IMG/VR virus record: IMGVR_UViG_3300044568_002560 | DNA: 64,000 bases | Reading direction: 5' to 3' (one strand) | Source of the DNA: an uncultured virus (IMG/VR IMGVR_UViG_3300044568_002560) | Taxonomy: Duplodnaviria; Heunggongvirae; Uroviricota; Caudoviricetes; Ackermannviridae | Shown: positions 16,924-55,162 of the stretch, one piece after another | Numbering within the stretch: position 1 is the first letter of the stretch | Layout: each line of letters opens with the position of its first letter | The notes under the pieces: model-generated | Database searches by the model: none | Told to the model about the DNA's origin: nothing | What the model saw: only the letters and a program-made list of their open reading frames with translations | Translations under genes and position numbers: made by a program

Positions 16924-18375
16924 TTACGACGCTACGCCGTGTAGGTTATCTACGCGGAAGATGCGGTAGTAACGGTTGGTGCGGGCGGTGAGTGCGCCGC
17001 TACCAACATTTACGCCTTCAGCGAAGGGGTTCGCAACCATGCCGTAGCGGGTCTTGAACGCGATCTTGGGCTGGAAGGAGTTAGTATCAACGGCGCGCAT
17101 CATCTGTAGCGGGACATAGGGGCAGTAGAAGATACCAGCGTCGTATGGGCTGGTTCCCTTGTATCCTACACAGACAAAGTTAGAACCGCTAGTGGCAGCG
17201 GTGTCGATGTACGGATCAATGTACACCTTGACCTTGCCGTTTAGAGTACCAGCAAAGGTGTTGCCGGTATCGTCCACATCAAGGCTGACATTCAGCGCGG
17301 GGCTGATGTTCAGGAATCCACCCATTGCGAGGGCTGAAGCAACATCTGCCGAGCAGATGATGAAGTTGCCCTTACCGCGACGGGTATCCTTTGCGATCTG
17401 GTTGCACTCGCGCTCAATCTGGAACATTAGACCACGGAACTTTTCCGCGCTCCAACGACCGTCAGAGTCTTGAATGAGATCGTATACGCCACCTACTGTG
17501 GCTGAACCACTCAAACCACCTTGAACAGTCTTGTAGTACAGATCGCCCTGCTGTGCTCCGAGTCTTGCGCTACGATAAACGGTACGAACCACTTCGCGGT
17601 TGATTTCAGACAGAATTTCTGTGCTGAGAATGTTGGCGAGTTCGGTTTCAGCGTCTAGACCGTGAACAGCCTTAAGGTCTTGAGCCAATTCCACCGAGTA
17701 CGAAGCAGCAAGAGCACGAGTACGGGCTTCTACGGCTACGCGCTCAATGGTGAATGCCATCTGAGCAGGACTCAAACCTTCGCCAGCAGAGGTGTTGAAA
17801 CCTGAACCGCTAGTCATGCCAACACCGCTAGCAGCGGCGGGATCATTAAGTCCAGGCAAACCAAGAAACGGATCAACAAAGAAAGCAGCGAATGTTGAAC
17901 CTGCGGCAGTTCGACCGACACTACCAGCGTTGGAGTTGTTAGAAGTAACGCCCGAGAACGCAACCTGTGGTTCGTTGAACATGGCTTCTGCACCAAGAGC
18001 ACCACCGTCAGTAGTGGTGGCGTACTTGGTACGCATTGCAAAGATCAAGCCTGTCGGAGCCGACATAGCCTGAACGCCGCAGATGTCGTATGCCATTAGG
18101 TTGGGCATAGCGCGACGAACCAACTGGATTAGAATTGGATCGTAGCCCTGAATTTGAGCAGACGAATCGCCCGCGCCACCCACAACGCCGGTTCCACTCA
18201 TGTTGCTGGTTGGGCCTTCGGTTAGCATCTGCTGCTTGATTGCCTTCTCCTGATTCTCTAGGAGGGTGGCAGTTACGGCGCGACGATGGGGATCTGCAAT
18301 TGCAGCCATGTCGGCGTGGTCTAGAACAGGCTTCCACTTGCGGAGAGCGTGTTCGGTTAGCATCTTGTCTTCCAT
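16924..18375 (-). CDS. 23: Major capsid protein gp23
   Basis: LVRRAMPNLMAYDICGVQ, ELAQDLKAVHGLDAETELANILSTEI, YCPYVPL, FKTRYG. Confidence 0.98.
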   Translation of the reverse strand: MEDKMLTEHALRKWKPVLDHADMAAIADPHRRAVTATLLENQEKAIKQQMLTEGPTSNMSGTGVVGGAGDSSAQIQGYDPILIQLVRRAMPNLMAYDICGVQAMSAPTGLIFAMRTKYATTTDGGALGAEAMFNEPQVAFSGVTSNNSNAGSVGRTAAGSTFAAFFVDPFLGLPGLNDPAAASGVGMTSGSGFNTSAGEGLSPAQMAFTIERVAVEARTRALAASYSVELAQDLKAVHGLDAETELANILSTEILSEINREVVRTVYRSARLGAQQGDLYYKTVQGGLSGSATVGGVYDLIQDSDGRWSAEKFRGLMFQIERECNQIAKDTRRGKGNFIICSADVASALAMGGFLNISPALNVSLDVDDTGNTFAGTLNGKVKVYIDPYIDTAATSGSNFVCVGYKGTSPYDAGIFYCPYVPLQMMRAVDTNSFQPKIAFKTRYGMVANPFAEGVNVGSGALTARTNRYYRIFRVDNLHGVAS

Positions 18376-18442
18376 GATAGTGACTCCTTTGGTTGTTTAA
18401 CAGTCGGAATTGACTGGAAAGTGTGAATTGAAAAAGTGAAAT

Positions 18443-19597
18443 TTAGTCCTTGCTCTTGCTCATGGACTTGAGGTAAGCCTCCATGAGCGGAGAAGATTCA
18501 GAACCTTCCTCGTAGGACTCTTCTAGAGTCTCTTCTTCGGCAGATTCGGTGGCGGTGCTACCAATGTTCTCAATGTTCTCGCGGAGAACAGAGAGTTTTT
18601 CGGCAAACTGCTCTACGGACTCAAACTCAACGCTCTCGGCTAGATCGCGTAGTTTTTGAATCTCGGTGTCGGTTAGTCCTTCAGCCATTTCGCGGAACAG
18701 GAGTTCGCAACGGAGTTGTTCGCACTCTTCGTTGATCTCCATGTTCTTGGCAACCTGACCGTCTAGTTCGCTCTTGAGGCTCTCGTAGTCCTCAACAGTG
18801 GACTCAAACAGATCAAGTTTCTCCTCGGGGATTTCAATGTACGACTCGGCAAACACGCCCTTGAGACGCTCAATGAATCCTTCGGTGATCTCGGTGCGAA
18901 GACCGTTGCTGACAGCCAGACGGTTCTCCTGCATCCACTCTTCCACCACATAGTTGAGGTACTCATCAATACGCTCAACCATTTCTTCGGTGACGGCGAG
19001 AGTGTGCTCTTCTAGTAGAGTCTCGTACTTGGCTTGAATCTCTTCCTCAATCTCGTCAACGCGAGACGCAAGGTGAGCCTCAAACAAGGTAGCGGCTTCG
19101 GTCTTGAACTCTTCGGTTAGTTCCTTGCCAGCGAACAAGGTTTCAATGCTCTCCTTCATGGAGGGCTTCTCTACCTTGCCGTTGGCATCGCTCTTCTTAG
19201 CCTTGATGGTAGCCATGTTCTTGCCAGCGTTTGCGTTGTGCGGCTCTGGAATCTTAGCACCCTTCTTGTTAGCATCGTGACTAATGTCGGTAGATGCGTA
19301 GTCAGAGGCGGCTTCCTTGACTTCCTTCTTCTTGAAAGAGAACTTCTTCATGGGCTTGTCTTCCTCTTCCTCTTCGTCCTCGTCTTCAGACTCTTCGTCC
19401 TCTGACTCGTCTTCATCTTCTTCCTTGGCTTCTTCTAGTTCGCCTTCGTACTCTTCCTCCACAACCTCTTCCTCAACAACCTCGTCCTCACCCTCTTGGG
19501 CTTCGGTGGGTTCTTCGGTGGGTTCGGGGTTTTCCGCAAGGAAACCTTCGCCTAGAATTACCTTCTTGATGACATCTTCAATGTTTTCGTTAGCCAT
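18443..19597 (-). CDS. 22: Prohead core scaffold gp22
   Basis: Acidic; EEFKTEAATLFEA, YLNYVVEEWMQEN, MEAY. Confidence 0.93.
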   Translation of the reverse strand: MANENIEDVIKKVILGEGFLAENPEPTEEPTEAQEGEDEVVEEEVVEEEYEGELEEAKEEDEDESEDEESEDEDEEEEEDKPMKKFSFKKKEVKEAASDYASTDISHDANKKGAKIPEPHNANAGKNMATIKAKKSDANGKVEKPSMKESIETLFAGKELTEEFKTEAATLFEAHLASRVDEIEEEIQAKYETLLEEHTLAVTEEMVERIDEYLNYVVEEWMQENRLAVSNGLRTEITEGFIERLKGVFAESYIEIPEEKLDLFESTVEDYESLKSELDGQVAKNMEINEECEQLRCELLFREMAEGLTDTEIQKLRDLAESVEFESVEQFAEKLSVLRENIENIGSTATESAEEETLEESYEEGSESSPLMEAYLKSMSKSKD

Positions 19598-22981: not shown

Positions 22982-25000
22982 TCAGCCGCCAACTTCTGTG
23001 AAGTTTACGCCAGTCTTGGTGGCGACAAAGTTCAACTGGATGAAGTTGATGCTGCGGGTTGGCTTCACGAAGATATCGGCTACAAACTCGTTGCGGTCGA
23101 TTACTTCGCCTGTGTTGTTGGTGTCATCGCACACCACCTTGAAGTCGGTGATGCCACGACGCTGTTGCACAGTCTTGAGGAACGGAACCACCAAGTTCTT
23201 GAACTGCGCTCGGGTAAACGCATCGTTCTGTTCAAACAGGAAGAACTTGCTTGCGGTGGCAATTGCCTTCTCAAGCACGATGAACAGGCGACGCACATTG
23301 ATGCGATCAAATGCGCTTGGGCGGGTCTGTGCGGTCTTGTCACCGAACAGGATTACGCCTTCGCCGGGGAACGACACCACAGGATTGATCTGACGGGTGT
23401 ACAGTTCGTCGCGGTGTGCTTCGGTTGACGGGTTGTACGCCAACTTGACCACATTCTTGACCTGCCCACGGTTAAATCCTGCGGGTGAGAACCACGCTTC
23501 GTTGGTGAACTCGGTACGAGCCACTAGACCTGCAATATCTGCGTTTAGTGGCACGGTGCGAATCACATTGTTGTAGGTGTCTAGTTGGTACTTCCAACCG
23601 CTGTCTAGAACTGCGTAAGACGAGTTGATGTTGAAAGTGCTGTCGCGGAAGGTCTTGAGCGAGTTCAAGGCTTCGTATGGTAGTTTGCTGACCACATCGG
23701 TGGATGCGGGAGACGCAAATGCCATGCAGTCTAGACGCTTTTCGCAAATGTTGTTTACGACCAGTTTGGCTAGAGTTGCAGAAGCGTTGCCTAGTGGCAA
23801 CAGAGACACATCCACGGTTTCTGCGTCAGCAAAGTAACTCCAACCGTCGTTCCAACGCTCTCCGTCTGCTGGTGTGCTGTCTGCACCCTGAGTAAGACCT
23901 AAAGAGATTACATTGTGACCCACAAGACGAGCACCAGCGATTCCGTTTAGAGTAGTCCAATCAGTCTTGGTGGAAACTCCACCAGTGTTATCTGCCAAAT
24001 CTGCCTGAATAGCGTAGATGTAGTTGGACTGATCTCGGATCACATTCTTGTAGTAGTTGCTTGATCCGTCTGTGTTTCGTGCATCGCTTGCACGAGACAC
24101 GGCTTCGTACTTCTCCAGTAGTGTTCCGGGAGTTCCTGTCCACTTGCCGTCGTTGTCAATCACCAACACGCTAATCATGTCACCGGAACCGCCTTGAGCC
24201 GCTGCGTAGTTTGTAGTGGTTGCAACAGTATTTACATAGTTGCTGTACACACTCTTTACTTGGAAAGTCATACCAGCAGTCTGTGCCTTTGGCAATCCGT
24301 TTTGGAAAGACAGTCTAATATTGCCAGAAGAAGTTAGTCCACTAAATTCGTTGTTTACTCCTGTTACTCCTACTACACTATCAAGCAATACTGTGGTTCC
24401 ATCGTTGAATATAATGGAATCGCCTTTGGTGAAATGGTATTTGTAACTGCTATTCACAGCAGCAAATGTCAATCCAGTTGCACCAAAATCCAAAGCAGCA
24501 CTGATTGTCATTCCGGTGCTCACTCCAGCATTGGCGTATCCTGTGAGTCCGTTACCAGCAACAACAACCACCTTGAGGCTGTTACCAAGTGCACCGGGAT
24601 ATTTGGCTGCAAATACTAGACCATTAGCCGCAGCAGTAGTTACAGCGGCAACAGGAGCATCGTATTCGCTTTCGTTGAAAATATCAAAAGTACCACCACT
24701 AAATCCACCGGTGATTCCAACAGCAGCATTGGCGGCACTAGCACCAACCACACGCACAACTTGAATGTTGTTGCCGTACTGTAGGAAGTTGGCAGGGGTA
24801 AAGAAATCCACAAAGTTGGTGCTGTCTGGCTTTCCAAACACATCAGCCAGTTCGCGTTCAGATGTAACTGTCACGATTTCTTTGCATGGTCCCCAGTAGA
24901 AGTACCCAGCGTAACCGCCGGGAGTGGTTGCTACTGCGGGTACAACTGTGGTCAGGTCGATTTCTTTGATGCTTACGCCGGGGCTTACTCTAAATGCCAT
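22982..25000 (-). CDS. 18: Tail sheath protein gp18
   Basis: SPGVSIKEIDLT, WFSPAGFNRG, FDRINVRRLF, KPTRSINFI. Confidence 0.97.
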   Translation of the reverse strand: MAFRVSPGVSIKEIDLTTVVPAVATTPGGYAGYFYWGPCKEIVTVTSERELADVFGKPDSTNFVDFFTPANFLQYGNNIQVVRVVGASAANAAVGITGGFSGGTFDIFNESEYDAPVAAVTTAAANGLVFAAKYPGALGNSLKVVVVAGNGLTGYANAGVSTGMTISAALDFGATGLTFAAVNSSYKYHFTKGDSIIFNDGTTVLLDSVVGVTGVNNEFSGLTSSGNIRLSFQNGLPKAQTAGMTFQVKSVYSNYVNTVATTTNYAAAQGGSGDMISVLVIDNDGKWTGTPGTLLEKYEAVSRASDARNTDGSSNYYKNVIRDQSNYIYAIQADLADNTGGVSTKTDWTTLNGIAGARLVGHNVISLGLTQGADSTPADGERWNDGWSYFADAETVDVSLLPLGNASATLAKLVVNNICEKRLDCMAFASPASTDVVSKLPYEALNSLKTFRDSTFNINSSYAVLDSGWKYQLDTYNNVIRTVPLNADIAGLVARTEFTNEAWFSPAGFNRGQVKNVVKLAYNPSTEAHRDELYTRQINPVVSFPGEGVILFGDKTAQTRPSAFDRINVRRLFIVLEKAIATASKFFLFEQNDAFTRAQFKNLVVPFLKTVQQRRGITDFKVVCDDTNNTGEVIDRNEFVADIFVKPTRSINFIQLNFVATKTGVNFTEVGG

Positions 25001-27411: not shown

Positions 27412-27897
27412 TTATGGCGCGTCTTCCACCTGTGCTTCGATAAACGCTTTTTTACTTGAACGGGCACTGTTTATAATATCCTGCAAATCACGGGTAGACC
27501 CCACATAAATGGCGTTTGTTGTGGTGTTGTTTGTGGTGTTGTTTTCAGTTTTACGAATACCCTTCATCTTGTCGTGCATATCCAACAGATCACGATTGGT
27601 TTCCGAAAGTGTTTTAATCATTTGGGCTACCACTTCATACGCACGGGGCGAGTCGCCTTCTTGGGCTACGGCTAGCACTCCGTCCAGTGCGTTCTTGCCG
27701 CTCTCAACCAGTTCACGAAGGTTTTTACGAACCGTTTCGTAGTCGTGTTTCAGGTCTTTTTCCAAGTACTCTTGGGTTAGTGGTGGAGTTTCAATCCGCA
27801 CCACAGGAATAGGAGAAGACTTGACTACAGGCTGTGATTCGTTTTCTGATGGCACTCCACTCAACACCGATTCAATATGTTCAAATCCATCAGCCAT
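27412..27897 (-). CDS. 16: Terminase small subunit gp16
   Basis: DYETVRKNL, PRAYEVVAQMIK, AIYVGSTRDLQ; start trimmed to ATG 27897. Confidence 0.92.
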   Translation of the reverse strand: MADGFEHIESVLSGVPSENESQPVVKSSPIPVVRIETPPLTQEYLEKDLKHDYETVRKNLRELVESGKNALDGVLAVAQEGDSPRAYEVVAQMIKTLSETNRDLLDMHDKMKGIRKTENNTTNNTTTNAIYVGSTRDLQDIINSARSSKKAFIEAQVEDAP

Positions 27898-28783
27898 AGA
27901 AACCTCCTGCACTTTGTGTTGTTCCATTAACTCCAAACCAGCCCACAGTTACACCACCTGATGCCATACCCGCAGCGTATGTAGAGCCTCCACCCGAATC
28001 TGCTTGGTATATCTTGGCATACGGAGAGTAGGTGTACTTGTCGGAACTTGCACCACTTGCTCCAGTAATACCCACAAACACATTGAACAGATTAGACGCA
28101 GTTGATCCTGCACCAGTGTATCCTGCGGTGTATCCACCGTCGTAATACGACATGTCAAAGAACCGCGAGTTTATCTTTCGGATTTCGCTGTAACTGCGAA
28201 CAGGGCCAAACAGATACGACTTCATGGTAAAGTTCAGGGTGAATATAATGCTGCGGCGGTTTTGGAAATCGCCCTCGTAGTCTTCTTCTGATGTAACAGA
28301 ATTCAAGTAGATGGGCACATCCACTTTTGTGTTTACAGCATCAAAGTTCATGGACACAACAAATTCAGGAGCAAAGTACGGAAGTATCTGCTCTATAATT
28401 TGCAGCCCGTCATCCATGTTTCGGGTGTACACATACAGCCCAAAGTCAATATTGTACGGCACTTCTGCAAATGTATATTTCATCGCAGATGTTTGGGTGT
28501 CTCGTACAATGTTCCGCTGGGCAGAGTTTCGCTTACGAGACGGATCGTATGCAAATCCTGTAATTTCAAATGCAATACGGGGCAGAGTTATTTGAAACGG
28601 ATTCTGTAGATACGGGTCGCCTCCAAGACGCACTTTGTACTTTTCTTTGGGTGCGTATGCAATAGGCACTTCAATGTATTTGGTTCCACTGCTCTCTGTA
28701 CGAGAAATATGTATTTGGTTGAATATGGAACCAAAGGCTACCACCATTTTACGGATGGTTTGGTTGTAGAACTGTGTGAACAT
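27890..28783 (-). CDS. 15: Tail terminator gp15
   Basis: VVAFGSIFN, VPIAYAPKEK, LQIIEQILPYFAP, YEGDF; Gly/Thr-rich C-terminal extension. Confidence 0.95.
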   Translation of the reverse strand: MFTQFYNQTIRKMVVAFGSIFNQIHISRTESSGTKYIEVPIAYAPKEKYKVRLGGDPYLQNPFQITLPRIAFEITGFAYDPSRKRNSAQRNIVRDTQTSAMKYTFAEVPYNIDFGLYVYTRNMDDGLQIIEQILPYFAPEFVVSMNFDAVNTKVDVPIYLNSVTSEEDYEGDFQNRRSIIFTLNFTMKSYLFGPVRSYSEIRKINSRFFDMSYYDGGYTAGYTGAGSTASNLFNVFVGITGASGASSDKYTYSPYAKIYQADSGGGSTYAAGMASGGVTVGWFGVNGTTQSAGGFYG

Positions 28784-31173: not shown

Positions 31174-31180
31174 TTAGATG

Positions 31181-32567: not shown

Positions 32568-32575
32568 TTATAACC

Positions 32576-33506: not shown

Positions 33507-33507
33507 T

Positions 33508-36961: not shown

Positions 36962-37138
36962 TTAGTCCTTTTTGTGGGCTTCCAAACGAAGCAATCGCTC
37001 GTTCAATGTATCTATCTGGGATTGTAATCCTTTAATTGTTTCTCGCAACGCTTCCTTTTCACGAATTTGGGATAAAATATTTGAGTCGCCTAGAACCACA
37101 CCCCGACCGTTTGCGTTTTTTATGTATTTACCAATCAT
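36962..37138 (-). CDS. Small coiled-coil protein (58 aa)
   Basis: Manual ORF MIGKYIKNANG...LNERLLRLEAHKKD with an ATGA overlap to the upstream gene. Confidence 0.7.
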   Translation of the reverse strand: MIGKYIKNANGRGVVLGDSNILSQIREKEALRETIKGLQSQIDTLNERLLRLEAHKKD

Positions 37139-40100
37139 ACTGTTCGGAGGCTAGCCATTCGCAAGTTACGAATCGCGGGCAACACAGAATAGGTCTTGGT
37201 TTGGTCGGTGATTACTGTCGAGTCAATTGTGAATACTAGTTTGATCTGATACCCACGAATACCTGTTGTGTTGTCAAATAGTGCCCATCGTGTTGGACGG
37301 AAATCGTATTCACTCTTGGACAGGTTAGAAGCCGCTGTAAACGGAATCTTGGGGCTACCAATTCCTTCAACGGCAGTCATAGCCACCCACGATTGACCAA
37401 ACAAATCAGACTCACCACGATTAGTATACCGCACATACGCACGAACTTGAGAACCGTATGGGCAGCACACTTCTGCTGTTGCAAATATTCCATTAGACAC
37501 CAAGTCTTCGGGCAGGGTTACTGCCTTGGACACATACGCAGACGAAGGCGATGCGGTAGTGTCTGTGGTGGCAATCATGGCAGCACCTACACCAAAGAAC
37601 ACACCTGTATCAACCGCAGGAGACAGATATGACTTGAATGGGATGGATGGGCGAGTCAAAGAGAATCGCAAATCCTTGGTACTGGTATAAACAGAAGACA
37701 GGTACTTGTTTTGATTATTCTGTAGAACCAATGGACTTGATGTGTCTAGAATTATCGCAGAAGTGCAATTCAATGGTGTGATTTGTGGCACATTCACCTT
37801 TATAACTTGACAGTTAGTTATATTTTGATTTGCATAATCTACTGTTCCACTTGAATAATCACCAAACTCGCAACGATTCACAGTAAACGCAATATCGGTT
37901 GACAGGTTTTGAGCAGCAGCACCAACCGACTGTGGTTGATACAGAGTTCCAACGGCAGGATTATTGCCACCACGACCAGTATTTGTAAGATCGACACCTG
38001 AATCGTAAGCACGCAAGGTGTAGTTCTTGCTGTTGGTCATAACAGCAATTGCGTACTCTCCCGGCTCTAAATAAATTGGGCTACTGAAAGTGAATCCTGT
38101 TCCAAGGGGTTCCACAGTACCGCCCACATATCCTGTATTGACCTGTGATGGCATCAAGGTCACGGTAGACATGGGGAAGGAAACCGAAGGTGATGGGTAT
38201 CCGTTTATAGTGGGACGCAACTGCACAGTTACAGGCAGAGTGGTGTCTTTGGTATCAAAATACAGAGTCACGCTGTTTGCGTACACGCCTTCGGGATACG
38301 CCTTTGCGTCAATAATAAAGGTTTGGCAAAGCGGATCAATCCACTGGTTGCTGTTGATGGTTTCTTGAATATTGTCGTAGGAAACATCGCGCTGGAAGGG
38401 GTCTTTAATGATGCCTTCACTTGTAACAGCCTGCCGTCTGTACTCTGGGTTTCGTGTGGAGTACACGCCATCAAACCGCTGACGCACATTTCCACCACAA
38501 TAGAAAATTCCATCGGCTGCTTGTGTGGCGTTCTGTGTGGTTGCGTTATCAGAAATTCGTACAGACTTTTCGCCTGACAGGTATCCTTCGCTGGTGAACG
38601 AGAAAGTGACACCAACGGTTCCGTTTGAGTTGGCAGAAAGCCCACTCTTGACTAGAACGCCGTCCACATACAGATTCAATCCTGTGGAACTTGGACGCAA
38701 TCCGTAAGCAGTAACACCAATATTGTTGTTTACAGGAACATACGGAACCACCGTTCGGTCTACCATTCGGTTGTCAAGTGTCTTGTACTTGGTGCGACCA
38801 ATCAACCTACTAGAGTTCAGCAGATTGCCAACCTTCTGATCGGTTGGTGTGGTGTTTCTGTTGATTGCTGTCTTTTCGTTTCCAGAGTTGGTTGTGGGAA
38901 TAGACGAAGGCGAATTGGTTCTTGGTGTTTCAAGAATTCGCTTCTGAACATCGTCCTTGCCATCGGTTCGGATTTGAGTACCAGTCCATAGGTACTCCCA
39001 ATCGTTCCATTGGGTTCCGAAACCGCGAGCGTTGTTTGCGTTGGAACCAACCCAATTGTCATTCTCTGACATGTTGTTATTGTAAACAACAGGGCGAACA
39101 CCTGTATCAAATCCAGTCTCGTACTGCTTGGTGAACTTCATAAATCCAAGCCAATTAACTGTGCCTGTGGGGTTTACTGCCACGCTCTTGTTGTATCCGT
39201 CATTTGTAATAAGCGGAGTAGAGGTGTAGTCTAAAGTAACCAATCCATCACTAGAAACAGTAGTGCCAGATGATGAAGTAATACCACCCAAACTAAACAG
39301 GTTGTGTGTAAACATTGGGCGCAGTTCACCGTATTGGTAGTCCACAGCGCATCGGTGGTCTTTATCTGAAACATCTCCACCAGCGTGCCCGTAGAAATCA
39401 TCGGTGTAGATTGATGTCTTGATGGGTTCTCCATTCAGACTAGAAACACCAAGCGATGCAGTAGAACCGCCGTTTGCAATATATCCGTCAACTATGGGCT
39501 TGACATCTCGCCCAGCCATTTCGGATTCAGACAGAGATAATTTTGCAAATGTCTCAATCTCATCAACACGCCTTTCCACATTATGAATATCTGTCATGGT
39601 ATACCGACGCACATCGTTCTTTATTACAACAACTTCTTGTGGTCTGTAGGTATAGGCAGGCACAGTTAGTGTAGCCACAGTCATTGAGTTTTCTGTTTCA
39701 GGTGGGGACTGTGGAGATAGTTCAGCAACACCTGAATCAACAGCAAACGATGTTGACAGGTCTGATGGATTAATTTTTAAACTCAACCGATCAATTCGGG
39801 GCAAATAATTGCTCCAAGACACTGTGGTTGCAGACAGCGACTCGTAATCTCCGTATGGCTTCGCATAGATGTTATCTAATGTTGGGCCACTATGTCGGAA
39901 GTCCACGCAGTTAGCCAACGAAACAGTTCGTCCAGTTTTGGGGTTCGTGAACAACGGAATTTGATCGTATGATATACCCAAATACGAGTGCTGCCCAACA
40001 AATGGGCCAAAGGTGGTTCCACCGTGTTGGAAATAATTGTATGAGCATGTAACAGTTTTATTAAGAGGAAGAGTATATGTACCTTCTTTTGATTTCTTGC

Positions 40101-42240
40101 AAACTAATGCAGAATAGTCATAGAACCCTTCGCGTTGACCGTCATCCAACTCAAAATCTGCAAGTTTATCAGCACCATCAAAAGACAATCCTGTAACAGA
40201 ATACACATCCCAATTAGGCAAAGTGAATCCAACACGACCGTTTATATTGGCAAAATTAAACGCTGTTGCGGTTACAGTTCTAGCGGTAGATACCTTGATT
40301 CTGCAAGTTCCAGAAAAACCTGATGCTGAAGCAAAATTAGCAGTGTACTTGAAAGGCAACACCATTCGCACACTCGGTGATGCTGCGGTAAATCCGGTTG
40401 GGCCACCAGATACTCCCATTACTAAATTTGATCCACTCTTGTACACCGAAACTGTAGCAAGAGGATCACCAGCATCGTTATTAGCGGGAGAGAACACGAT
40501 ACCACCACTGTTTATAAACTGATACTTGCTAATTGTTGATCTTACACTTGTTGATGTACCACTCAAATCAGGAGCAACATCAATAAAAGAAGTATTATAT
40601 GATCCAGTTGGAAGATCAAGATCACTTGGGGTAACTGTCCATGTGTTGGTTGGACTGGTAAAACTAACGCCCAATGTCTTGGATACAACTTTGCCGTAAA
40701 AAGACAAGGCAGTAAAAGCACTTACACCTTGTGTGGGAGTAATCTCATAAACCAAAGAGGTGTCGTTTGCTCCACTACCACCAATAATACCAAATGTGGT
40801 TCCTGTTATTGGGCCAAAAATACCGAATGTGATACCTGCACTTGCACCACCCGGACTTCCGTAAACTACTGCGCTGCTTGCCCCGCTAATCACCGAGTCT
40901 GTGCAAATTCCGTACAGGTACATGGAATACGCAGCAGAAGTCTTTCCAGATCCAACTGCTCGTGGAACCAACCCGTGTACTCCTGCTTGACCAATAAAAG
41001 CACCACTACTGTTTCGGAATCGCACAAGAGCGTATCCACCGTTCATATTATTAAAATAAGTGTAAGCCGTTGCACCATAATTGGCAGTGTCTAGCGAAAC
41101 ACCCAACACATTTCCAGTATTGAATCCAAATGATCCACCAGCAGATTGAGTGGTTCGTGCTTTGGTTATACCAATAATTGTAGGATACTTGGTTTCTACT
41201 TCATTGCCAAAAACATACGCTTTTCCTGGCCCAACTACCACATCTAGTTTAGTAGCATCGGTGCTAGAATTACGCACACTCACATCAAACGGACTAACCA
41301 CATACGAACCAGATTCGTCATAGGTTCTTTGAGCCAATGTTTTGGCAATATCCCCATAAACAACTTTGTCTGCCTTTTTGGTAACTTTGCCGTCCTCAAA
41401 ACGAAGGATTTCAACAAAATCGTTTGGTGTATCAGTCAGATCAACCTGTGTCAAATCCAAATTTATAACAAAACGATCCCCACCCGGTGCTTTATAGTTG
41501 GGAGAACCAAAAGACGGATCTAGCAGGGTTAAATCCTCTGCTGATGTGGTTGTATCTCGGGTAACAGCAAAACCAACCTTTTTATCCAAACCAGCAAATG
41601 TGACACCACTAGAAGTACCAGTTAAATCACGATAAGTGCCTGATATTGTATACGGAGTAAACGACTGTTCGGTGTTAAGCACAAACGCGCCGTCAACATA
41701 AAATATACCTTCACCCACAGTTACAAGTTTGCACAATCCGTTGTGGGAAGTACCCGCTGCAACCATTGGACTATACGATCCACCGTTGCTTGTGGTTATT
41801 CCAAGAGTAACACCTGTGGTTGGGATTTGAGCACCGTAACCACTCACATAATCCACAACCACGAACAGTTTATCGTCTGTTTCGGGAGGCAGCACATGGG
41901 CAATAGTGCCGCTAGCAGTTGCTCCCCAATAAATGGTTCCACCAACCAGTGAAGCCCAATCAGTAGAGCCGAATGCGTTGAACGGAGAACCGGAACCTGT
42001 CCTCAATCCCAAGAAGTTAGTGTTACGAACCGAGATGGGCGCACCCACAATACGGGAGCCGTCTTTAAACAGGTGATCGCCAATTTTTGAAATTTGATCC
42101 TGTAGAATTGACTGCATTTGGGTCAATTCACGGGCTTGAACCGCGTAACCGGGCTTGAAAAGAATTCTCAAGAAACGATTAGCAGGATCGTAATCGTCGT
42201 AATACGGAGAAATGTTGAAAATACTTGGGTCGTAAGCCAT
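37135..42240 (-). CDS. Large baseplate/structural protein (VrlC/DUF4815-like)
   Basis: SPYYDDYD, LFKPGYAVQARELTQMQSILQ, RTYDESGSY, DPLCQTF. Confidence 0.88.
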   Translation of the reverse strand: MAYDPSIFNISPYYDDYDPANRFLRILFKPGYAVQARELTQMQSILQDQISKIGDHLFKDGSRIVGAPISVRNTNFLGLRTGSGSPFNAFGSTDWASLVGGTIYWGATASGTIAHVLPPETDDKLFVVVDYVSGYGAQIPTTGVTLGITTSNGGSYSPMVAAGTSHNGLCKLVTVGEGIFYVDGAFVLNTEQSFTPYTISGTYRDLTGTSSGVTFAGLDKKVGFAVTRDTTTSAEDLTLLDPSFGSPNYKAPGGDRFVINLDLTQVDLTDTPNDFVEILRFEDGKVTKKADKVVYGDIAKTLAQRTYDESGSYVVSPFDVSVRNSSTDATKLDVVVGPGKAYVFGNEVETKYPTIIGITKARTTQSAGGSFGFNTGNVLGVSLDTANYGATAYTYFNNMNGGYALVRFRNSSGAFIGQAGVHGLVPRAVGSGKTSAAYSMYLYGICTDSVISGASSAVVYGSPGGASAGITFGIFGPITGTTFGIIGGSGANDTSLVYEITPTQGVSAFTALSFYGKVVSKTLGVSFTSPTNTWTVTPSDLDLPTGSYNTSFIDVAPDLSGTSTSVRSTISKYQFINSGGIVFSPANNDAGDPLATVSVYKSGSNLVMGVSGGPTGFTAASPSVRMVLPFKYTANFASASGFSGTCRIKVSTARTVTATAFNFANINGRVGFTLPNWDVYSVTGLSFDGADKLADFELDDGQREGFYDYSALVCKKSKEGTYTLPLNKTVTCSYNYFQHGGTTFGPFVGQHSYLGISYDQIPLFTNPKTGRTVSLANCVDFRHSGPTLDNIYAKPYGDYESLSATTVSWSNYLPRIDRLSLKINPSDLSTSFAVDSGVAELSPQSPPETENSMTVATLTVPAYTYRPQEVVVIKNDVRRYTMTDIHNVERRVDEIETFAKLSLSESEMAGRDVKPIVDGYIANGGSTASLGVSSLNGEPIKTSIYTDDFYGHAGGDVSDKDHRCAVDYQYGELRPMFTHNLFSLGGITSSSGTTVSSDGLVTLDYTSTPLITNDGYNKSVAVNPTGTVNWLGFMKFTKQYETGFDTGVRPVVYNNNMSENDNWVGSNANNARGFGTQWNDWEYLWTGTQIRTDGKDDVQKRILETPRTNSPSSIPTTNSGNEKTAINRNTTPTDQKVGNLLNSSRLIGRTKYKTLDNRMVDRTVVPYVPVNNNIGVTAYGLRPSSTGLNLYVDGVLVKSGLSANSNGTVGVTFSFTSEGYLSGEKSVRISDNATTQNATQAADGIFYCGGNVRQRFDGVYSTRNPEYRRQAVTSEGIIKDPFQRDVSYDNIQETINSNQWIDPLCQTFIIDAKAYPEGVYANSVTLYFDTKDTTLPVTVQLRPTINGYPSPSVSFPMSTVTLMPSQVNTGYVGGTVEPLGTGFTFSSPIYLEPGEYAIAVMTNSKNYTLRAYDSGVDLTNTGRGGNNPAVGTLYQPQSVGAAAQNLSTDIAFTVNRCEFGDYSSGTVDYANQNITNCQVIKVNVPQITPLNCTSAIILDTSSPLVLQNNQNKYLSSVYTSTKDLRFSLTRPSIPFKSYLSPAVDTGVFFGVGAAMIATTDTTASPSSAYVSKAVTLPEDLVSNGIFATAEVCCPYGSQVRAYVRYTNRGESDLFGQSWVAMTAVEGIGSPKIPFTAASNLSKSEYDFRPTRWALFDNTTGIRGYQIKLVFTIDSTVITDQTKTYSVLPAIRNLRMASLRTV

Positions 42241-42249: not shown

Positions 42250-44667
42250 TTAGAATCCTACTCGTAGTCTGAATTCTTCGCTTTGGTTTTGTAGTCTCTG
42301 AACAGGCTGTATACTGTTTATGTATATGATTTCGCCAGAATGAATGTCTATCTGGGGGTTTGTAACACTACTAACTGTATATCCGTCATTTATTAAAGTG
42401 CGGTTTAGACGAGAGAAAGTTAATCCGCTACCTGAACTGGTTTTGAATATACCGAAAGGCTCGCTGATGTACAGTTTTCCTGTGGATGCGGTGATCTTGT
42501 CCCATTTATACACATAACCACTAGCGTAATCGTTTTCATAAGACGCACTCTTGCCCTGTTGAACAAAATCACCACTCACCCATGTGGTTTCACCGAAATC
42601 GTCTAGCGACGAACCCAATGGCTTATTCATGCTTAATACAGTCAGCCCTGTATACTTTGGAACAGTTGCTTCATCAAAATATGGAGGGCTTGCACTTATA
42701 ATTTTGAAAAGTTCAGCAGTACCACCTTCGGTTGCTAGCGACAGCCCCCTGTTCACAAAGGCAAGTTCGCCGTATGCCAAAGAAACACCACCCACATACG
42801 CAGTAACACCGCCACTAACTCCTGTAATCTTGAGAGATTCCGAGGCTCCGCGAGCAAAAGCATTCTTGGTTACACGAACACCCAATTTAGTCGTGGTTGC
42901 AGAAATAATTGTTCCTTCTGCGGTAATACCAAAACCGTATGATATACCACCGAATGCAGAAATACCCGCAGGAATATTTTGAGTAATGGTTTCGCCCACC
43001 GAGAATCCCGATTTAGGAGTAGACAGGTTAAGATCGTAAACATCCAAACGATCAGCCCATGTTACGGGAGTAGCACCTGTGTTTTTTACCTTTATCTGTA
43101 CTCGAATTTCACCGTTCACTGTGTTTGCCGATATCACAGAACTCACAGGGAAAGACGCATACGACTCTGCTCCTGTGATAAAGTTTTTGCTTCCACTAAA
43201 GAAATTAGTTTCAAACCCTGCCTTATCGGATGCCGCACTTCCAAGATACAACAACACAAGATTACGATAATACTGCTGATCGCTTCCTGCTAAATTTTCG
43301 CTGCCATCATTCAGTATTGGATTTCGGATAATTCCAAATTGACGATATGTTCCATCTGTGGGAATAATACTAGAATCATTGGTATCGTCTATTTCTGCAA
43401 TCATAATCACATCAGAAACATTGAGTTCTTTCAAGATGTTTGAACCGTGCCCACCCTTTGGAGACAGTATTGCATTCAATGTTGGGTGAACAGTATTTCC
43501 TGATGTTCCACCAGATTTTGGACTAACAACTTCTACCGCTGCTTGGCTGTAGTTCCGCCCACCATTAACCAAATCTATGCCTGTGACTTTACGCCAATCC
43601 GCGTCTCCTGTTTTTCCCAACCGCAAGAAACCGTAAGCCCCTGTACCGTCTCCAGAAATACGAGCATGGGGAAGAATATCATAAAAAACTCTATCACTTG
43701 AATTGTTAAAAGTTAAAACAAACGGCTCATACTCTCCACGAATTGTAAAAGTGTATGAACTAGAATCAGAAGTTACTCCGTATATGATGCCGTATTTATT
43801 TACATCGGTAATACTTCCACCACTCACACCCACAACTCGTAAAATATTTCCTTTATAAGTGTCTAGTTGTGATTGTGGAAGAGTAAACTGATTGGTGTTT
43901 GTGCTAGAATTGATGGTATAAAAATCACCAACACCATAAGAAACATTAGCAGCAGTAGTTCCTGTTCCACCAACCACAAATCGTGCACCGTATTCACTTC
44001 CAAGATAGGTGGCAGCAGACACACCACCGGTTGATGTGACTTCAAGAGCAGTAATTTGCCCGTTTACTGCTGACCTTTGAGCATTGAATTGGAGTGTGGT
44101 TTCGCTTGTGCTTGGGTCTGTAAGATTGTTCTGCTCAATCCTCACAAAATTGATAGGCACATAATCGGTAAGTTCATACGGAATATCCGATGCTTTTACG
44201 GTTGCCAAATACTTCCATGTGTATCCGTCCTGACCTGTCAGTGGGGTGGAAGTTGTATGAGTAGGCACATCTCTTGATGTTCCTGTTGTTGCTCCAACGC
44301 ACTTATAGATGTTGTTTGCGTCTGTCACTACATAAAAATTGCTTGGTGCGTCTTCGTTAAACAGTTCTACATCGTCACGATACGCATCGTAAACACCGCC
44401 TGCTGTCCAACCAATTCGTGGAAGAGCAAACACTATTTTACTGGGATCTATTTGCTTGTAGCCAATAATGCTACGCATAACATCGTATTCTGCACGAACG
44501 GTATCCGCAGGCACAACAGGAATAATATCAGCACTGGCTCCTGCTGTTTCGGGCCAAGGAGTAGTCTTGGCAATAAACAGGTAGTGGTTGGCACGATTTG
44601 CTGCTATTTCGGTTAGAAACGACTCTGCAAATGCTCGTTTAATGGATGTTTTCAGTAGTAGGGGCAT
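42250..44667 (-). CDS. 8: Baseplate wedge gp8-like
   Basis: NFYVVTD..IYKC, DGYTWKY, PKGGHG, YRQFGIIRNP, SGEIIYIN. Confidence 0.85.
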   Translation of the reverse strand: MPLLLKTSIKRAFAESFLTEIAANRANHYLFIAKTTPWPETAGASADIIPVVPADTVRAEYDVMRSIIGYKQIDPSKIVFALPRIGWTAGGVYDAYRDDVELFNEDAPSNFYVVTDANNIYKCVGATTGTSRDVPTHTTSTPLTGQDGYTWKYLATVKASDIPYELTDYVPINFVRIEQNNLTDPSTSETTLQFNAQRSAVNGQITALEVTSTGGVSAATYLGSEYGARFVVGGTGTTAANVSYGVGDFYTINSSTNTNQFTLPQSQLDTYKGNILRVVGVSGGSITDVNKYGIIYGVTSDSSSYTFTIRGEYEPFVLTFNNSSDRVFYDILPHARISGDGTGAYGFLRLGKTGDADWRKVTGIDLVNGGRNYSQAAVEVVSPKSGGTSGNTVHPTLNAILSPKGGHGSNILKELNVSDVIMIAEIDDTNDSSIIPTDGTYRQFGIIRNPILNDGSENLAGSDQQYYRNLVLLYLGSAASDKAGFETNFFSGSKNFITGAESYASFPVSSVISANTVNGEIRVQIKVKNTGATPVTWADRLDVYDLNLSTPKSGFSVGETITQNIPAGISAFGGISYGFGITAEGTIISATTTKLGVRVTKNAFARGASESLKITGVSGGVTAYVGGVSLAYGELAFVNRGLSLATEGGTAELFKIISASPPYFDEATVPKYTGLTVLSMNKPLGSSLDDFGETTWVSGDFVQQGKSASYENDYASGYVYKWDKITASTGKLYISEPFGIFKTSSGSGLTFSRLNRTLINDGYTVSSVTNPQIDIHSGEIIYINSIQPVQRLQNQSEEFRLRVGF

Positions 44668-44675: not shown

Positions 44676-47600
44676 TTACTCTCCCAGTGTATCGTATGTA
44701 TCTTGAGTCAGCACAGTTCCGTTCGCTAGGCGTGTGCCTGCCGACTTGTACACCAAGCCGTACAGGGACAGTAGGGCTTGTATGGTCATGTTACCCATGC
44801 TGATTCCTATTGGTACTGATCTAGAACCTGCCGTGTTTGGATGCTTGGAAATATACCAATACGGATACCCTGCGGCAACGGCAGCAGGATAACAACCAAA
44901 ACCTGCACCCTCAAAGAATTGCCCAAGAGAAGCCTCTAGTCTGTATTTTCTAGACAGATATGCGTACACCAATAGGCGTTCACTCTGATCCAAAACACGG
45001 TCGTATACAAGAATTTCGTAAATTACACCCTTGAACGAGTACGGTGTATTGGCAAGAGCAGCAGTCACAAAATTGGCAGACGCGGTAGAATCAGAATACG
45101 GAGCATCTAATACGGGCAAACAGAACGCACCAAACTGCCCCATATCAAGGGTTGCACCGTTGTACGAAACTTGAGATGCTTCAAAGTTGGAAGGATTGGA
45201 ACCACCCGGACTATCAGGGCGGGCAATTCGTCTAGCGGTTTCCACAGAGTAATTGGCAGACTCTTCGCCGTTATAGAACGACTGTATGCGTCCTGTAGTA
45301 TCTCGCCGCCACTCTCCTAATGAAATGTTTTCTAGGGACACACCAGTGGTTGTTGCCCTATACGGATTGAATGCAATACGAGACGCAGTAGTGCTGCCTG
45401 TGTTGCTACGCAAACCAACTAGACCACTTTCATACGGATAGAACGACTGGTTTGTGCTAGAGTTTACAAAATAATATCTACTGTTCTGTTTGGTGGAGTC
45501 TGCATCAATATCACTATACGATCTATGGTATAGCAGGTGGTCGGTTTCTGTGTTTCCGTAAGTGAATCCTGTTCCTGTGGCTGTGGTAAAGTCCTTGAAT
45601 TTCTTACTAGAAGAAACAAATCCTAATCCGTAATTTGAAGCAGTATATCCAGATGCAGTAGTACCTGCTCGGAACACTATAAACACACTCATGTCTTTGG
45701 TTAAAGATATGCCACGAGTTAAAACAAAATGCTGTCCTGATAGAATTTTTTCACCGGTAGTTCCTGGGCCAAAAGGCACAGTAGCAATACCACCAAGAGT
45801 TTTTCCTGTTCCGTAACCACCACATACTCCAGCCTGTGTCCATACTGTATGTGGCCCATACACAACACCGCCATTGAATTGAATACCAGTTCTACCCGCA
45901 AACCCTCTGTCATTGATTACTAGAGTGGGGCGTAGTTTATCAATTGTAACACCAGTATAAGAAGTAGTCCACGAATCCCACTTGGGAGGAAATGCGTGAT
46001 TTTGCGAAAGCGAGGCATCACTCCAAATATCCATGCTTGCACCTGTAATCAACGACCCACCACACACTCCAATATTTTCAGGCTTGAGCCACAGCGTTAA
46101 ACCAACCAACCCAAATGGGGAATTGCCCACAACATTAGGACCAAGACGAGACTCATTACCCAACAGCCATGCCGTAATGCCACCCAAAGGCGCACCAAGA
46201 GGACGGTGAGCCACCGTGCCGCCTTCAGGCACAAAGCAGTAGGTATACCCCAGGTTTCCACCCGAACCGCCTGCGGTGAATGTGGTTCCTGCTGGCGCAG
46301 TGTTTCCATTTGGCCCTAATTCTGCTGTGCTGCCAATATACGGATTGTAGCCTGCGGGATACAAGTCTCCAGTAGTTCCATATGTAATTCCGTACTCCTG
46401 AAACACCCAATTTCCAGCAGCGGTGATACCGTTGTTTCGTAAATCCAAAGTGGTTCCAAAGGTGTACGGCAAATAGTTGCCCATCACTGGAACGCCTTCA
46501 CGAGTAAGTTGAGACGATGCCACATGACGACACATCACCCTGTCTTCCAAAAGGATGGAACCAAACATCTTCATGCCAGCAGGATGCACCAATTGTTTCA
46601 ATACGGAATAGAAACGATCTATGCTGACTGCGGATTTTAATTCGTATGAAAATTCTTGGTAGTAGTCGCCGTCGTAAATCTTTGGAGTAGACGAAATCTT
46701 TCCTGTATTGCCTTTGTAGTATCCGGGATACCGAGTAATTGCAGACGGCGTAAACACGATTTGTGCGTTGGTGTTGACTCCGTTTGAACTGATAACCAGC
46801 GCACTTATGGTATTCACATAGTTGATGCCAGAGTTTTCAATCTGAATACGCTTAACAGCACCGTCTAGACCCGTCTGCTGCACCTTTGCGGAGAATCCCA
46901 CACCGTCTCCCTGCAAATACACCACATCTCCCACATTATAATTCGATCCTGCTGTTTGGATATAAAAATCACCAAGCACACTGAATGTGGTTTCTGTAAA
47001 CGGATCAAAGGTAGAATCAGGTGGTGTCAGTACTACTTCAACATTAGGCAAGAAATTACCAACCAAATCGGTCAGATACAGTTCTGTAATAGGCACACCG
47101 TTTTGATAGTACTGAAACACCCGATCAATGGTTGCATACGCTTGCAGCGTGTACAGGTCTTTGTACTGCTGCACTTTTCCGCCTTCTGCGTATTTGTGGA
47201 GTGTTTCATTGTTTCGTGTAACCTTGATAGACACCTGTTCCACCCATTTACCGTCAGATGCTCGCAAAATGTCGTTCTTGGGGTAGTAAAACTGCACATT
47301 GCTGTCAAACAGTAGACGGAACAAGAACCGATACGCACTCTCTGTGCCTTTGCTGCCGTAAAACTGCTTGATTTTTTTCAGCAGCGTCTTCTTGTTTGGC
47401 TTGAGTCCGTCTGTATTGGTTGCAAATATTTCAGGAAACGAATCCAAGAAAGTGGATTTAAAATGGGAGTAGAACTGCTCTAGATTGTTGTCAACATCAA
47501 TGGCTGAGTCAATATTATTGTTTACGAATCCAGCGTTCCCTTGAGTTTCTGCCCACTCGTAATACGCCTTGATAAACAGCACCAATTTCCTGTAATCACT

Positions 47601-47699
47601 ACGCATAAACGACGGAAACTGTTCCTCAATAAAAGGCGACAGAATGCTTTCAAGTGCTTCAGCAGGCGTATTCAGGATTATGGATTTGATTTCTGGCAT
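44676..47699 (-). CDS. 7: Baseplate wedge gp7-like with C-terminal lectin-like extension
   Basis: FIKAYYEW, KGTESAYRFLFR, YYQEFSY, HPAGMKMFG; LWLK...WSD...IYEILVYDR extension. Confidence 0.8.
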   Translation of the reverse strand: MPEIKSIILNTPAEALESILSPFIEEQFPSFMRSDYRKLVLFIKAYYEWAETQGNAGFVNNNIDSAIDVDNNLEQFYSHFKSTFLDSFPEIFATNTDGLKPNKKTLLKKIKQFYGSKGTESAYRFLFRLLFDSNVQFYYPKNDILRASDGKWVEQVSIKVTRNNETLHKYAEGGKVQQYKDLYTLQAYATIDRVFQYYQNGVPITELYLTDLVGNFLPNVEVVLTPPDSTFDPFTETTFSVLGDFYIQTAGSNYNVGDVVYLQGDGVGFSAKVQQTGLDGAVKRIQIENSGINYVNTISALVISSNGVNTNAQIVFTPSAITRYPGYYKGNTGKISSTPKIYDGDYYQEFSYELKSAVSIDRFYSVLKQLVHPAGMKMFGSILLEDRVMCRHVASSQLTREGVPVMGNYLPYTFGTTLDLRNNGITAAGNWVFQEYGITYGTTGDLYPAGYNPYIGSTAELGPNGNTAPAGTTFTAGGSGGNLGYTYCFVPEGGTVAHRPLGAPLGGITAWLLGNESRLGPNVVGNSPFGLVGLTLWLKPENIGVCGGSLITGASMDIWSDASLSQNHAFPPKWDSWTTSYTGVTIDKLRPTLVINDRGFAGRTGIQFNGGVVYGPHTVWTQAGVCGGYGTGKTLGGIATVPFGPGTTGEKILSGQHFVLTRGISLTKDMSVFIVFRAGTTASGYTASNYGLGFVSSSKKFKDFTTATGTGFTYGNTETDHLLYHRSYSDIDADSTKQNSRYYFVNSSTNQSFYPYESGLVGLRSNTGSTTASRIAFNPYRATTTGVSLENISLGEWRRDTTGRIQSFYNGEESANYSVETARRIARPDSPGGSNPSNFEASQVSYNGATLDMGQFGAFCLPVLDAPYSDSTASANFVTAALANTPYSFKGVIYEILVYDRVLDQSERLLVYAYLSRKYRLEASLGQFFEGAGFGCYPAAVAAGYPYWYISKHPNTAGSRSVPIGISMGNMTIQALLSLYGLVYKSAGTRLANGTVLTQDTYDTLGE

Positions 47700-54256: not shown

Positions 54257-54259
54257 TGA

Positions 54260-55162
54260 TTAGACTCCTAGAGCATTCTTTAGTTCTTTGATTGCCTGTT
54301 CCATGTACGCAGGGGCAAGCACCTTGATGGTTCGTTTACTTTCGTTTTCATCGTTTTCGTACACATAGTTGCTAACTGCGTATGTGTTGATTTCGTCTCC
54401 TGAAACCCCCATATAACCACCAATATAGGTTTCCCAAAACGCAACAGTTGCGCCTGTCGCTCCACCACTAATCCCTGATGGTGGAATCTGTGTTCCCACA
54501 ACGGTTCCCAAATCCTCGTAGTCAGCCGATTGTTTGTTTAGAGGATCAACAAACGGATTCTCTTGTGAACCGTTTGATCCGTCTCCGGTGGTTGGTCTTG
54601 CCACAGCGAAATGGTGAAGCCCCTGATACGACGGCAAAACCTTCTGAATATAGATTCCTGTGGTGGAACCGCTAGGCAATTGAACCTCTGCGTTTCCAAC
54701 CGTGAAAACAGGAGAACCCACAGTAAACTCACAGAAAGTTTCACGATAGCCTGTAATGGCTTGGCTGTTGCTGTTTTGACTCAAAGTGCAACCACTTGCA
54801 AACGCGGTGTTGTACACAAAATCGTATGTTGCGCCTCTACCACTAAAATAAACAGCAGTACCCGAATACTTCTTCTGAATGTACTGCTCCATTGCCATCT
54901 GCGATTTGTACCACCCGTGATACGGATCAATAATATTGTTTGCCAGCAAAACAATCCAATGGTGATTTGCGTTTCCATACAGGCGATTGGCTATATGTTC
55001 AGGGCGTTCTCCGTCCTTGATATCGTACTCAATAAATGCGGATTGGCTGTTGATACGATCCGAGAACGCAACACGCCGCAGCACATTTCGTGCAACCGCA
55101 TACGATCTGGTATCCCCAATATAGAAAGGATATGGAACTACTGGAAATTCTTTGAAGTACAT
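54260..55162 (-). CDS. 53: Baseplate wedge gp53
   Basis: MYFKEFP, GERPEHIA..LYG...HWIVLLAN, YENDENESKRTIK. Confidence 0.9.
   Translation of the reverse strand: MYFKEFPVVPYPFYIGDTRSYAVARNVLRRVAFSDRINSQSAFIEYDIKDGERPEHIANRLYGNANHHWIVLLANNIIDPYHGWYKSQMAMEQYIQKKYSGTAVYFSGRGATYDFVYNTAFASGCTLSQNSNSQAITGYRETFCEFTVGSPVFTVGNAEVQLPSGSTTGIYIQKVLPSYQGLHHFAVARPTTGDGSNGSQENPFVDPLNKQSADYEDLGTVVGTQIPPSGISGGATGATVAFWETYIGGYMGVSGDEINTYAVSNYVYENDENESKRTIKVLAPAYMEQAIKELKNALGV

Follow-up and report, generated by a model that had tools for sequence, protein, structure and literature searches.

Known protein-glycosylation sequons include N-X-S/T, the D-S/T-hydrophobic motif of O-glycosylation in Bacteroidetes and the atypical sequons of chlorovirus capsids. 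Among protein glycosyltransferases, GmaR is the O-GlcNAc transferase of Listeria flagellin, and SunS and ThuS are S-/O-glycosyltransferases of glycocins, the SunS family acting on Cys and ThuS on Ser and Cys. In mycobacteriophages, virion glycans are placed at the C-termini of capsid and tail-tube subunits in one account (PMC12619734). Few parts of aquatic T4-like phage genomes vary as much, or are understood as little, as their sugar-gene islands, which are usually assigned to host-surface or DNA modification; the glycosyltransferase (GT) clusters of S-SCSM2R, S-SCSM1 and P-SSM2 are read in this way in one report (PMC12801897). Here we analysed a 64-kb stretch of an uncultured T4-like myovirus (IMG/VR record IMGVR_UViG_3300044568_002560; the whole stretch is called the window below), which is a block of replication and virion genes. 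The tripeptide G-[AVILMF]-[T/S/C], abbreviated G-phi-[T/S/C] with phi for the hydrophobic residue, recurs in its virion proteins, and an initial annotation had proposed it as a sequon for O- or S-linked modification that was possibly served by a GT island at positions 1-4895. We found an ordered, lineage-specific bias at the level of amino acids that lies almost entirely on outer virion proteins, where the motif occurs two to six times as often as expected. From the sequences, we put the probability that G-phi-[T/S/C] is an O-/S-glycosylation sequon on outer virion surfaces at about 0.5, and the likely reader of the motif is a GT2+TPR enzyme rather than the island genes visible in the window.

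An ordered motif in outer virion proteins of the window

Motif counts were compared with 2000 composition-preserving shuffles per protein, and six proteins of the window were enriched. All of them, like every other window gene given with coordinates below, are encoded on the minus strand (-). The 478-aa fibre (35522..36958) carries 22 sites where 7.3 are expected (z 5.9), the gp18 tail sheath (22982..25000) 15 versus 3.9 (z 5.8), the 805-aa gp8-like baseplate wedge protein (42250..44667) 17 versus 5.5 (z 5.0), the 1701-aa DUF4815/VrlC-like virion protein (37135..42240) 26 versus 11.5 (z 4.6), the 1007-aa gp7-like baseplate wedge protein (44676..47699) 14 versus 6.5 (z 3.2) and the gp53 baseplate wedge protein (54260..55162) 5 versus 1.4 (z 3.3). 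Pooled, these six proteins hold 99 sites versus 36.1 expected (z 11.2). The earlier manual counts are thereby reproduced within one site, the gp8-like protein, which had been given 16, being corrected to 17.

The sites are concentrated where the initial annotation had located them in gp18 (13 of 15 in the outer region, residues 85-370), in the gp7-like protein (13 of 14 from residue 424 on) and in the gp53 insertion (four at residues 230-252). The clusters that it saw in the gp15 tail and the gp23 insertion are less secure: the gp15 tail sheath stabiliser (27890..28783) has 4 sites versus 1.6 (p 0.07), all in the C-terminal tail at residues 238-277, and the gp23 major capsid protein (16924..18375) has 4 versus 2.9, located in an internal insertion at residues 142-287, so that neither is significant in the window alone. 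The proteins listed as free of the motif, gp17, gp46, gp47, gp44 and gp32, indeed contain no site, and UvsW and the portal contain two each. The term "virion-wide" proved too broad because the tail tube has 0 sites in the window and a set of C1q-like fibres is unenriched.

The order of the residues matters. In the six pooled proteins the reversed motif occurs at expectation (41 versus 36.3), and all five alternative arrangements of these residue classes, for which composition predicts an equal count, give 27 to 48. G-phi is underrepresented before residues of every other class. Across the 56 remaining window proteins, no ordering is rarer than the motif itself (43 versus 53-76). Shuffling within blocks of 40, 20 and 10 aa left z at 10.2, 10.1 and 9.8, and these block shuffles together with the ordering controls rule out local composition as the cause. 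The codons at the sites are varied, with all four Gly codons, 20 middle codons and both Ser codon families in use, indicating that the signal sits at the protein level and ruling out a DNA-level cause. A stretch of ~65 aa is duplicated within the 478-aa fibre, which makes copies of a few of the 22 sites there; with this protein left out, 77 sites are counted.

To define the form of the motif we pooled the window with four relatives, in all 39 surface proteins (27,903 aa), which are mutually related and therefore not independent samples. At position 1, G is enriched 2.41x and every other residue reaches at most 1.3x. Position 2 favours I (3.4x), V (2.65x), L (2.4x) and A (2.3x), with polar and charged residues below 1x. 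At position 3, C reaches 6.2x (32 versus 5.2), T 2.69x and S 1.91x. Neither V (0.94x), which is isosteric, nor A (0.87x), N (0.92x) or D (0.80x) is enriched there. Position 3 therefore requires a hydroxyl or a thiol, not merely a small or beta-branched residue, and the Cys acceptance reported initially is borne out by seven window sites. Position 4 favours G or A: the word G-phi-[T/S/C]-[G/A] occurs 44 times versus 7.3 expected (6.0x), whereas phi-[S/T]-[G/A], which has no leading Gly, stands at 0.86x. Another short word, [S/T]-G-S, is at 1.18x. The motif is best written G-[IVLA]-[T/S/C]-[G/A]. What we found is thus a short ordered motif with a nucleophile and position-specific constraints, as a sequon has.

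Distribution of the motif inside and outside the clade

A DNA-level search of cultured phages found none close to the window (best matches ~72% identity over a few hundred bases), and the closest cultured sheath, from Stenotrophomonas phage DLP_6, shows 46% identity across the full length. A large uncultured clade, whose sheaths share 64-98% identity with the window gp18, is present in metagenomes. All of 120 sheath homologues carry 7-16 sites versus ~4 expected, totalling 1304 versus 494, and the reversed motif stands at 0.83x. Over 80 related viral contigs the motif is enriched in gp18 (2.71x), gp15 (3.75x, 37 orthologues), gp23 (1.76x) and unassigned fibre-like open reading frames (ORFs; 1.99x), and is depleted in the tail tube (0.16x) and terminase (0.14x); gp15 and gp23, which fall short of significance in the window, are thus enriched clade-wide. 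Long relatives show the same bias in gp7, the VrlC-like protein, fibres, gp15 and gp23. G032, a complete genome of the clade (147,410 bp, with terminal repeats), has 185 ORFs, of which eight are enriched in the forward motif at p<0.01 and none in the reversed one. These eight are gp7, gp8, the VrlC-like protein, a fibre (34 versus 11.6), gp15, a 663-aa virion protein, a 641-aa unknown protein and a Mom-like protein, so that six are virion proteins.

The individual sites turn over. In the sheath alignment the motif starts in 65 columns, of which a few are fixed (window positions 8, 221, 300 and 616), and recurrent columns number 39 versus 14-26 for other orderings. Among 17 pairs of window proteins and orthologues, 85 of 240 window sites are common to both (35%, versus 9-25% for control orderings), and the orthologues carry 199 sites, ~2x expectation. 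The VrlC-like proteins, for example, have 26, 24 and 23 sites with 7 in common, and the sheaths of the window and of relative G002 have 15 each with 4 in common. One gp7 site shows a Ser/Cys swap between orthologues, and three Cys sites are conserved. Since ~65% of the sites are private while the density stays at about twofold, selection acts on density, which is expected of a short motif read by a trans-acting factor. As a separate observation, gp18 position 616 lies in the conserved C-terminal domain and reads G-I-T in 120 of 120 clade sheaths; its counterpart in DLP_6 and T4 is G-I-Y, so a fixed Tyr-to-Thr change makes the motif in the sheath core.

In the reference phages compared outside the clade the bias is not seen. 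The structural modules of other T4-like phages give observed-to-expected ratios of 1.05 for T4, 0.85 and 0.69 for two separate stretches of DLP_6, and 1.07 for the cyanomyovirus ACG-2014d. A second cyanomyovirus, P-SSM2, has many sugar genes and no distinctive ordering (98 versus 69-93). Pooling 150 diverse sheath representatives gave 1.23x forward and 1.04x reversed, and only 4 of the 150 are singly enriched, one of them the clade's own representative. These comparisons rule out a generic property of beta-proteins.

The sheath provides the closest comparison, because the outer domains of the window and DLP_6 sheaths are homologous (32% identity) and similar in G/T/S content (12.9/10.5/8.7% in the window, 10.2/10.2/8.7% in DLP_6). 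The window domain has 13 forward and 2 reversed motifs, and the DLP_6 domain has 0 and 4. At the aligned positions DLP_6 often keeps G-phi, and position 3 is N, P, V, Y or G. A model of the window sheath is confident at residues 80-390 (predicted local distance difference test, pLDDT, ~90) and places 13 of the 15 sites in the outer domain, mostly in predicted coil or at strand edges; the Gly of the 13 outer-domain sites falls in coil in nine cases, in strand in four and in helix in none. Taken with the comparisons outside the clade, these mixed contexts make fold, composition or a single structural element poor explanations of the motif.

The sugar-gene island and its conserved enzymes

The island begins directly downstream of the gene for the translational regulator regA (4913..5359), a landmark that precedes it in every relative examined. 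Its first gene (4194..4895) encodes a soluble 233-aa GT-A glycosyltransferase, and the variable part (2..4234; 36% G+C, low) encodes an epimerase/dehydratase cut by the window edge, two GT-like proteins, a DegT aminotransferase and a GT2-like protein. In every clade member regA is followed by the GT-A gene and then a variable cassette, which in relatives ends with a GT2+TPR gene. Each cassette holds a different set of 8-16 soluble sugar genes, drawn from GT2, GT10, GT25, GT47-like, GT32-like and WavE-type families, epimerases, DegT proteins, nucleotidyltransferases, sugar methyltransferases and UDP-galactopyranose mutase. A transmembrane-like segment was predicted in 0 of 6 window island proteins and in 4 of 102 relatives' cassette ORFs, and no flippase, polymerase or multi-transmembrane protein was found in the cassettes. 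We noticed some unusual members: the island of G002 contains a RuBisCO large-subunit-like protein within the sugar cassette (L127:14129-15322; PF00016, E 4.6e-37), and other cassettes contain a DHBP synthase and a split transketolase-like pair.

The proposal that the island at 1-4895 serves the motif is supported in part. The island is real and its GT-A gene is conserved, but the five genes at 2-4234 have no homologue in relatives G002 and G004, in which synteny is kept and the motif is biased. These five genes therefore cannot be the reader of the motif, and the idea that the window island genes as such are its enzymes was rejected for 2-4234.

The GT-A ORF was found at 68 viral loci, mostly at 69-100% identity and always directly after regA. 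No homologue was found among 50,697 deposited phages, and its profile gave no match in 21 records of neighbouring lineages, most of which are fragments that stop short of regA. It matches PHROG 14945 "glycosyltransferase" (E 1.3e-8), no Pfam family even at E 10, and no PDB entry by sequence. An AlphaFold2 model (mean pLDDT 88.5, predicted template modelling score 0.88) shows a single Rossmann-like alpha/beta/alpha GT-A fold, which VIA-align relates to WrtF (Z 18.1), RmlT (16.8), TarS (16.5) and GalNAc-T1/T3 (~16) and Foldseek to SpsA/WrtF-type enzymes (E 4.5e-9). All 26 aligned homologues keep S95-D96-D97, which is probably the catalytic DxD-type motif; H188 is invariant too. At three other loci (L166-L168), distant homologues (37-40%) form the N-terminal half of a ~460-aa protein in a different gene neighbourhood.

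The enzyme at the other end of the island is encoded in G032 at 68019-69260. It has 413 aa, with a Glycos_transf_2 domain at residues 8-93 (E 3.5e-13) and TPR/ANAPC3 repeats at 182-299. Its top PDB sequence matches are GmaR (4.9e-6), 7msk (6.8e-5) and SunS (0.011-0.016), which are weak and mostly cover the catalytic domain. The gene occurs at 125 related viral loci, including those of G032, G002, G007 and G008, and its homologues in deposited phages are all distant and come from one jumbo phage and a few megaphages, with a 37% homologue in Tunturiibacter phage Tunturi_5. The gene is also present on a contig that matches the window island at 91.6% identity over 3341 nt, so it very probably lies immediately to the left of position 1 in the window phage too.

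Lineages with the GT2+TPR gene show the bias. Six sheaths from lineages other than the window clade hold 48 sites versus 20.1 expected, with 20 in reverse. In G036 (86% complete; sheath ~50% identical), the gene stands beside regA and there is no GT-A gene. Six of its 169 ORFs are enriched, including a tail fibre (40 versus 13.9) and a large protein (35 versus 11.7), and the motif occurs 216 times versus 104-178 for other orderings. The gene is missing from P-SSM2 (complete) and from G012 (99% complete), and all the complete or near-complete genomes that lack it (T4, DLP_6, ACG-2014d, P-SSM2 and G012) show no bias; their sheaths have observed versus expected counts of 4/3.3 in T4, 1/2.9 in DLP_6, 6/5.0 in P-SSM2 and 4/4.3 in G012. 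P-SSM2 rules out that any large GT complement gives the bias. The GT-A enzyme as sole reader is weakened by G036, which is biased without it, and by G009, which has it and is only weakly biased. The co-occurrence with specific GTs that the initial annotation had suggested examining is therefore seen for the GT2+TPR enzyme, over ~4 lineages, and is loose for the GT-A enzyme.

We infer the modification itself, the reading enzyme, the modified residue and the timing of expression, and picture them as follows. Soluble island enzymes would make nucleotide sugars in the cytoplasm late in infection. A GT2+TPR enzyme of the GmaR/SunS type would recognise the motif where it lies in loops or at strand edges of virion proteins, either folded or still assembling, and would attach the first sugar to the position-3 hydroxyl or thiol; the known acceptors of SunS and ThuS, Cys and Ser, would fit Thr/Ser/Cys at this position. 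The conserved GT-A enzyme (4194-4895) and the strain-variable transferases would then extend the glycan, resulting in a glycan-coated particle whose glycan differs between strains.

Pfam marks gp23, the portal, gp18, terminase, gp15, gp6, the gp7-like and gp8-like proteins, gp53, gp5, gp32, regA and the giant DUF4815/VrlC-like protein in the window, and neither Pfam nor PHROG matched the 478-aa fibre (35522..36958). Next to this fibre gene lie seven tandem paralogues of 200-240 aa (30493-35503) with a common N-terminus of the type MS-T/N-I/L-K/R-x-N-T/N-I; three have C1q-domain matches (E 5e-10 to 8e-6) and one matches tail-fibre PHROGs, so that the region looks like an array of small C1q-headed fibres. 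The T4 late-promoter core TATAAATA has 0 matches in the 64 kb (1.5 expected). CTAAATA or ATAAATA occurs 10-67 nt upstream of gp13, gp32, regA, the GT-A gene and a baseplate gene, and neither was found upstream of gp23, gp18 and gp20. A dCMP/cytidine deaminase (15264-15815) has extra weak matches to APOBEC/AID-like deaminase families. In the relatives, G003 has three small adjacent ORFs (65208-66362; 83, 96 and 111 aa) with 4, 5 and 5 sites versus 0.6-1.0 expected, and G036, G039, G040 and G042 have two tandem sheath-like genes of ~635 aa and ~900-945 aa with alike N-termini (G036 115150-119819; L438, L446).

Alternative explanations and comparison with known systems

Several observations weigh against a glycosylation sequon read by the GT2+TPR enzyme. 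The gene of the proposed reader is not in the window and would lie past its left edge. The lineages in which enzyme and motif occur together are only ~4 independent ones (the window clade, G036-42, G037 and G038), so the association could reflect shared ancestry. G009 has a GT-A gene at 54% identity and only a weak bias (~1.7x forward, 1.3x reversed), and G010, which belongs to a different lineage from G007, has an intermediate bias on a contig that ends before regA. The ACG-2014d sheath has 8 sites versus 4.1 although this phage is without the enzyme. On the target side, the seven C1q-like paralogues (30493-35503) are exposed yet carry 9 sites versus ~13.6, the gp8 orthologues of G003 and G005 and the VrlC-like protein of G036 (8 versus 7.0) are unenriched, and the Mom-like protein of G032, which is non-structural, is enriched (5 versus 0.7). 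The fold of the GT-A enzyme resembles mostly glycan-acting enzymes and does not tell its acceptor. The Mom-like DNA-modification protein (L353:13528-14448, which is G032 73528-74448; PHROG 1384, E 1.8e-14) is the only clearly non-structural ORF among the enriched ones.

The motif could instead be a lineage-specific structural or biophysical device, in which a Gly turn, a buried hydrophobic residue and a surface hydroxyl aid the folding, stability or solubility of exposed loops and no enzyme is involved. About a third of the sheath sites do lie at coil-to-strand transitions, the shared sites are conserved above control tripeptides (35% versus 9-25%), a few such as positions 8 and 616 are invariant in the 120 sheaths, and the 150 diverse sheaths have a slight general forward excess (1.23x). 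We nevertheless consider such a device unlikely, since the homologous DLP_6 outer domain of the same composition has 0 sites versus 13, the structural proteins of T4 and the cyanophages stand at 0.7-1.07x, the bias spans unrelated folds (sheath, gp15 tail, gp7, gp53 and fibres) and mixed secondary-structure contexts, and most sites turn over. Position 3 also argues against it: neither isosteric Val nor the capping residues Asn and Asp are enriched there, and Cys is, at 6.2x. That the motif is a functionless by-product of internal repeats, fibre-module exchange or counts inflated by ancestry is very improbable. The fibre duplication carries several sites, G036 fibres have collagen-like segments, and the clade counts are drawn from related sequences, but the other proteins still hold 77 sites when the fibre is set aside, the outer domain of the sheath has its orthologue in DLP_6 and is not an acquired module, and density is kept while 65% of the sites are private to one orthologue. 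The 39 recurrent alignment columns (versus 14-26) and the rarity of this ordering in the other 56 window proteins (43 versus 53-76) also speak against a by-product.

A further alternative keeps a reader but replaces the GT by a kinase, an acyl-, methyl- or nucleotidyl-transferase, or an assembly or host factor, with the island serving the host envelope or the DNA. In its favour, the cyanomyovirus islands are interpreted as host cell-wall or DNA modification genes in the report cited above (PMC12801897), the GT-A fold resembles glycan- and teichoic-acid-acting enzymes, GT25 and WavE-type lipopolysaccharide families occur in the cassettes, virus GTs are described as hypermodifying DNA (PMC13326640), and clade genomes encode the Mom-like DNA-modification protein. 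According to the same source, the bases from which known glycosylated pyrimidines derive are products of a viral homologue of thymidylate synthase (PMC13326640). Nine clade records, among them the complete G032, yielded no hydroxymethylase or hydroxylase of the thymidylate-synthase family in a search that was positive in 10 of 14 known genomes, and DNA glycosylation is thereby weakened. The cassettes lack a flippase, polymerase or multi-transmembrane protein, and host envelope remodelling, a possible use of the island, would leave the motif unexplained. P-SSM2 has many GTs and no bias, and protein glycosyltransferases are the nearest sequence relatives of the conserved enzyme at the island's end. 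We therefore doubt this alternative as well. The glycosylation reading in its most specific form, in which G-[IVLA]-[T/S/C]-[G/A] is a true sequon, a GmaR/SunS-like GT2+TPR enzyme O-/S-glycosylates ~100 loop sites on sheath, baseplate, fibres and capsid, and the cassette extends the glycan, is tentative, with a chance that we rate somewhat short of even.

If this reading is true, a widespread group of freshwater and marine T4-like phages would carry the glycans, their motif would be the first sequon defined for glycosylation of phage virions, and S-linked glycans would be new to virus particles. The hypervariable sugar islands of aquatic T4-like phages, long a puzzle, would then be explained as virion-coat factories. 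A sequence-readable acceptor motif would make the question of what these islands do directly testable, and metagenomes could be used to predict which virion surfaces are glycosylated. Tails and fibres coated with glycans that differ between strains would matter for adsorption, host range, decay and grazing of phages in water, and for the recognition of phage particles in general.

Like the known sequons, the motif is an ordered word of three to four residues that includes the acceptor and occurs in many copies on surface proteins. To our knowledge, its leading Gly, hydrophobic middle and Cys acceptance match no known sequon, and our literature search found no phage sequon of this form, in agreement with the initial annotation. 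The end enzyme of the relatives' islands resembles GmaR, SunS and ThuS in having a GT2 catalytic domain followed by TPR-type repeats, but the similarity is weak (E 5e-6 to 0.016 for GmaR and SunS), and they act on one or a few substrates, against the ~100 sites on many proteins proposed here. With the cyanomyovirus islands the locus shares soluble GTs, epimerases, aminotransferases and strain-variable content; unlike the clade, P-SSM2 has neither of the two conserved enzymes and no bias, and cyanomyovirus islands come without a proposed acceptor motif. The mycobacteriophages offer the parallel of phage-encoded soluble GTs, structural virion proteins proposed as targets and a glycan coat. Their glycans were measured, while those proposed here are predicted from sequence, for sheath, baseplate and fibre targets and with an ordered motif; the tail tube has 0 sites (0.16x in the clade) and the capsid sites are internal (142-287), in contrast to their C-terminal pattern, and the window GT genes adjoin regA ~18 kb from the sheath gene. 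The locus described here may work like mycobacteriophage virion glycosylation but is not a member of that system.

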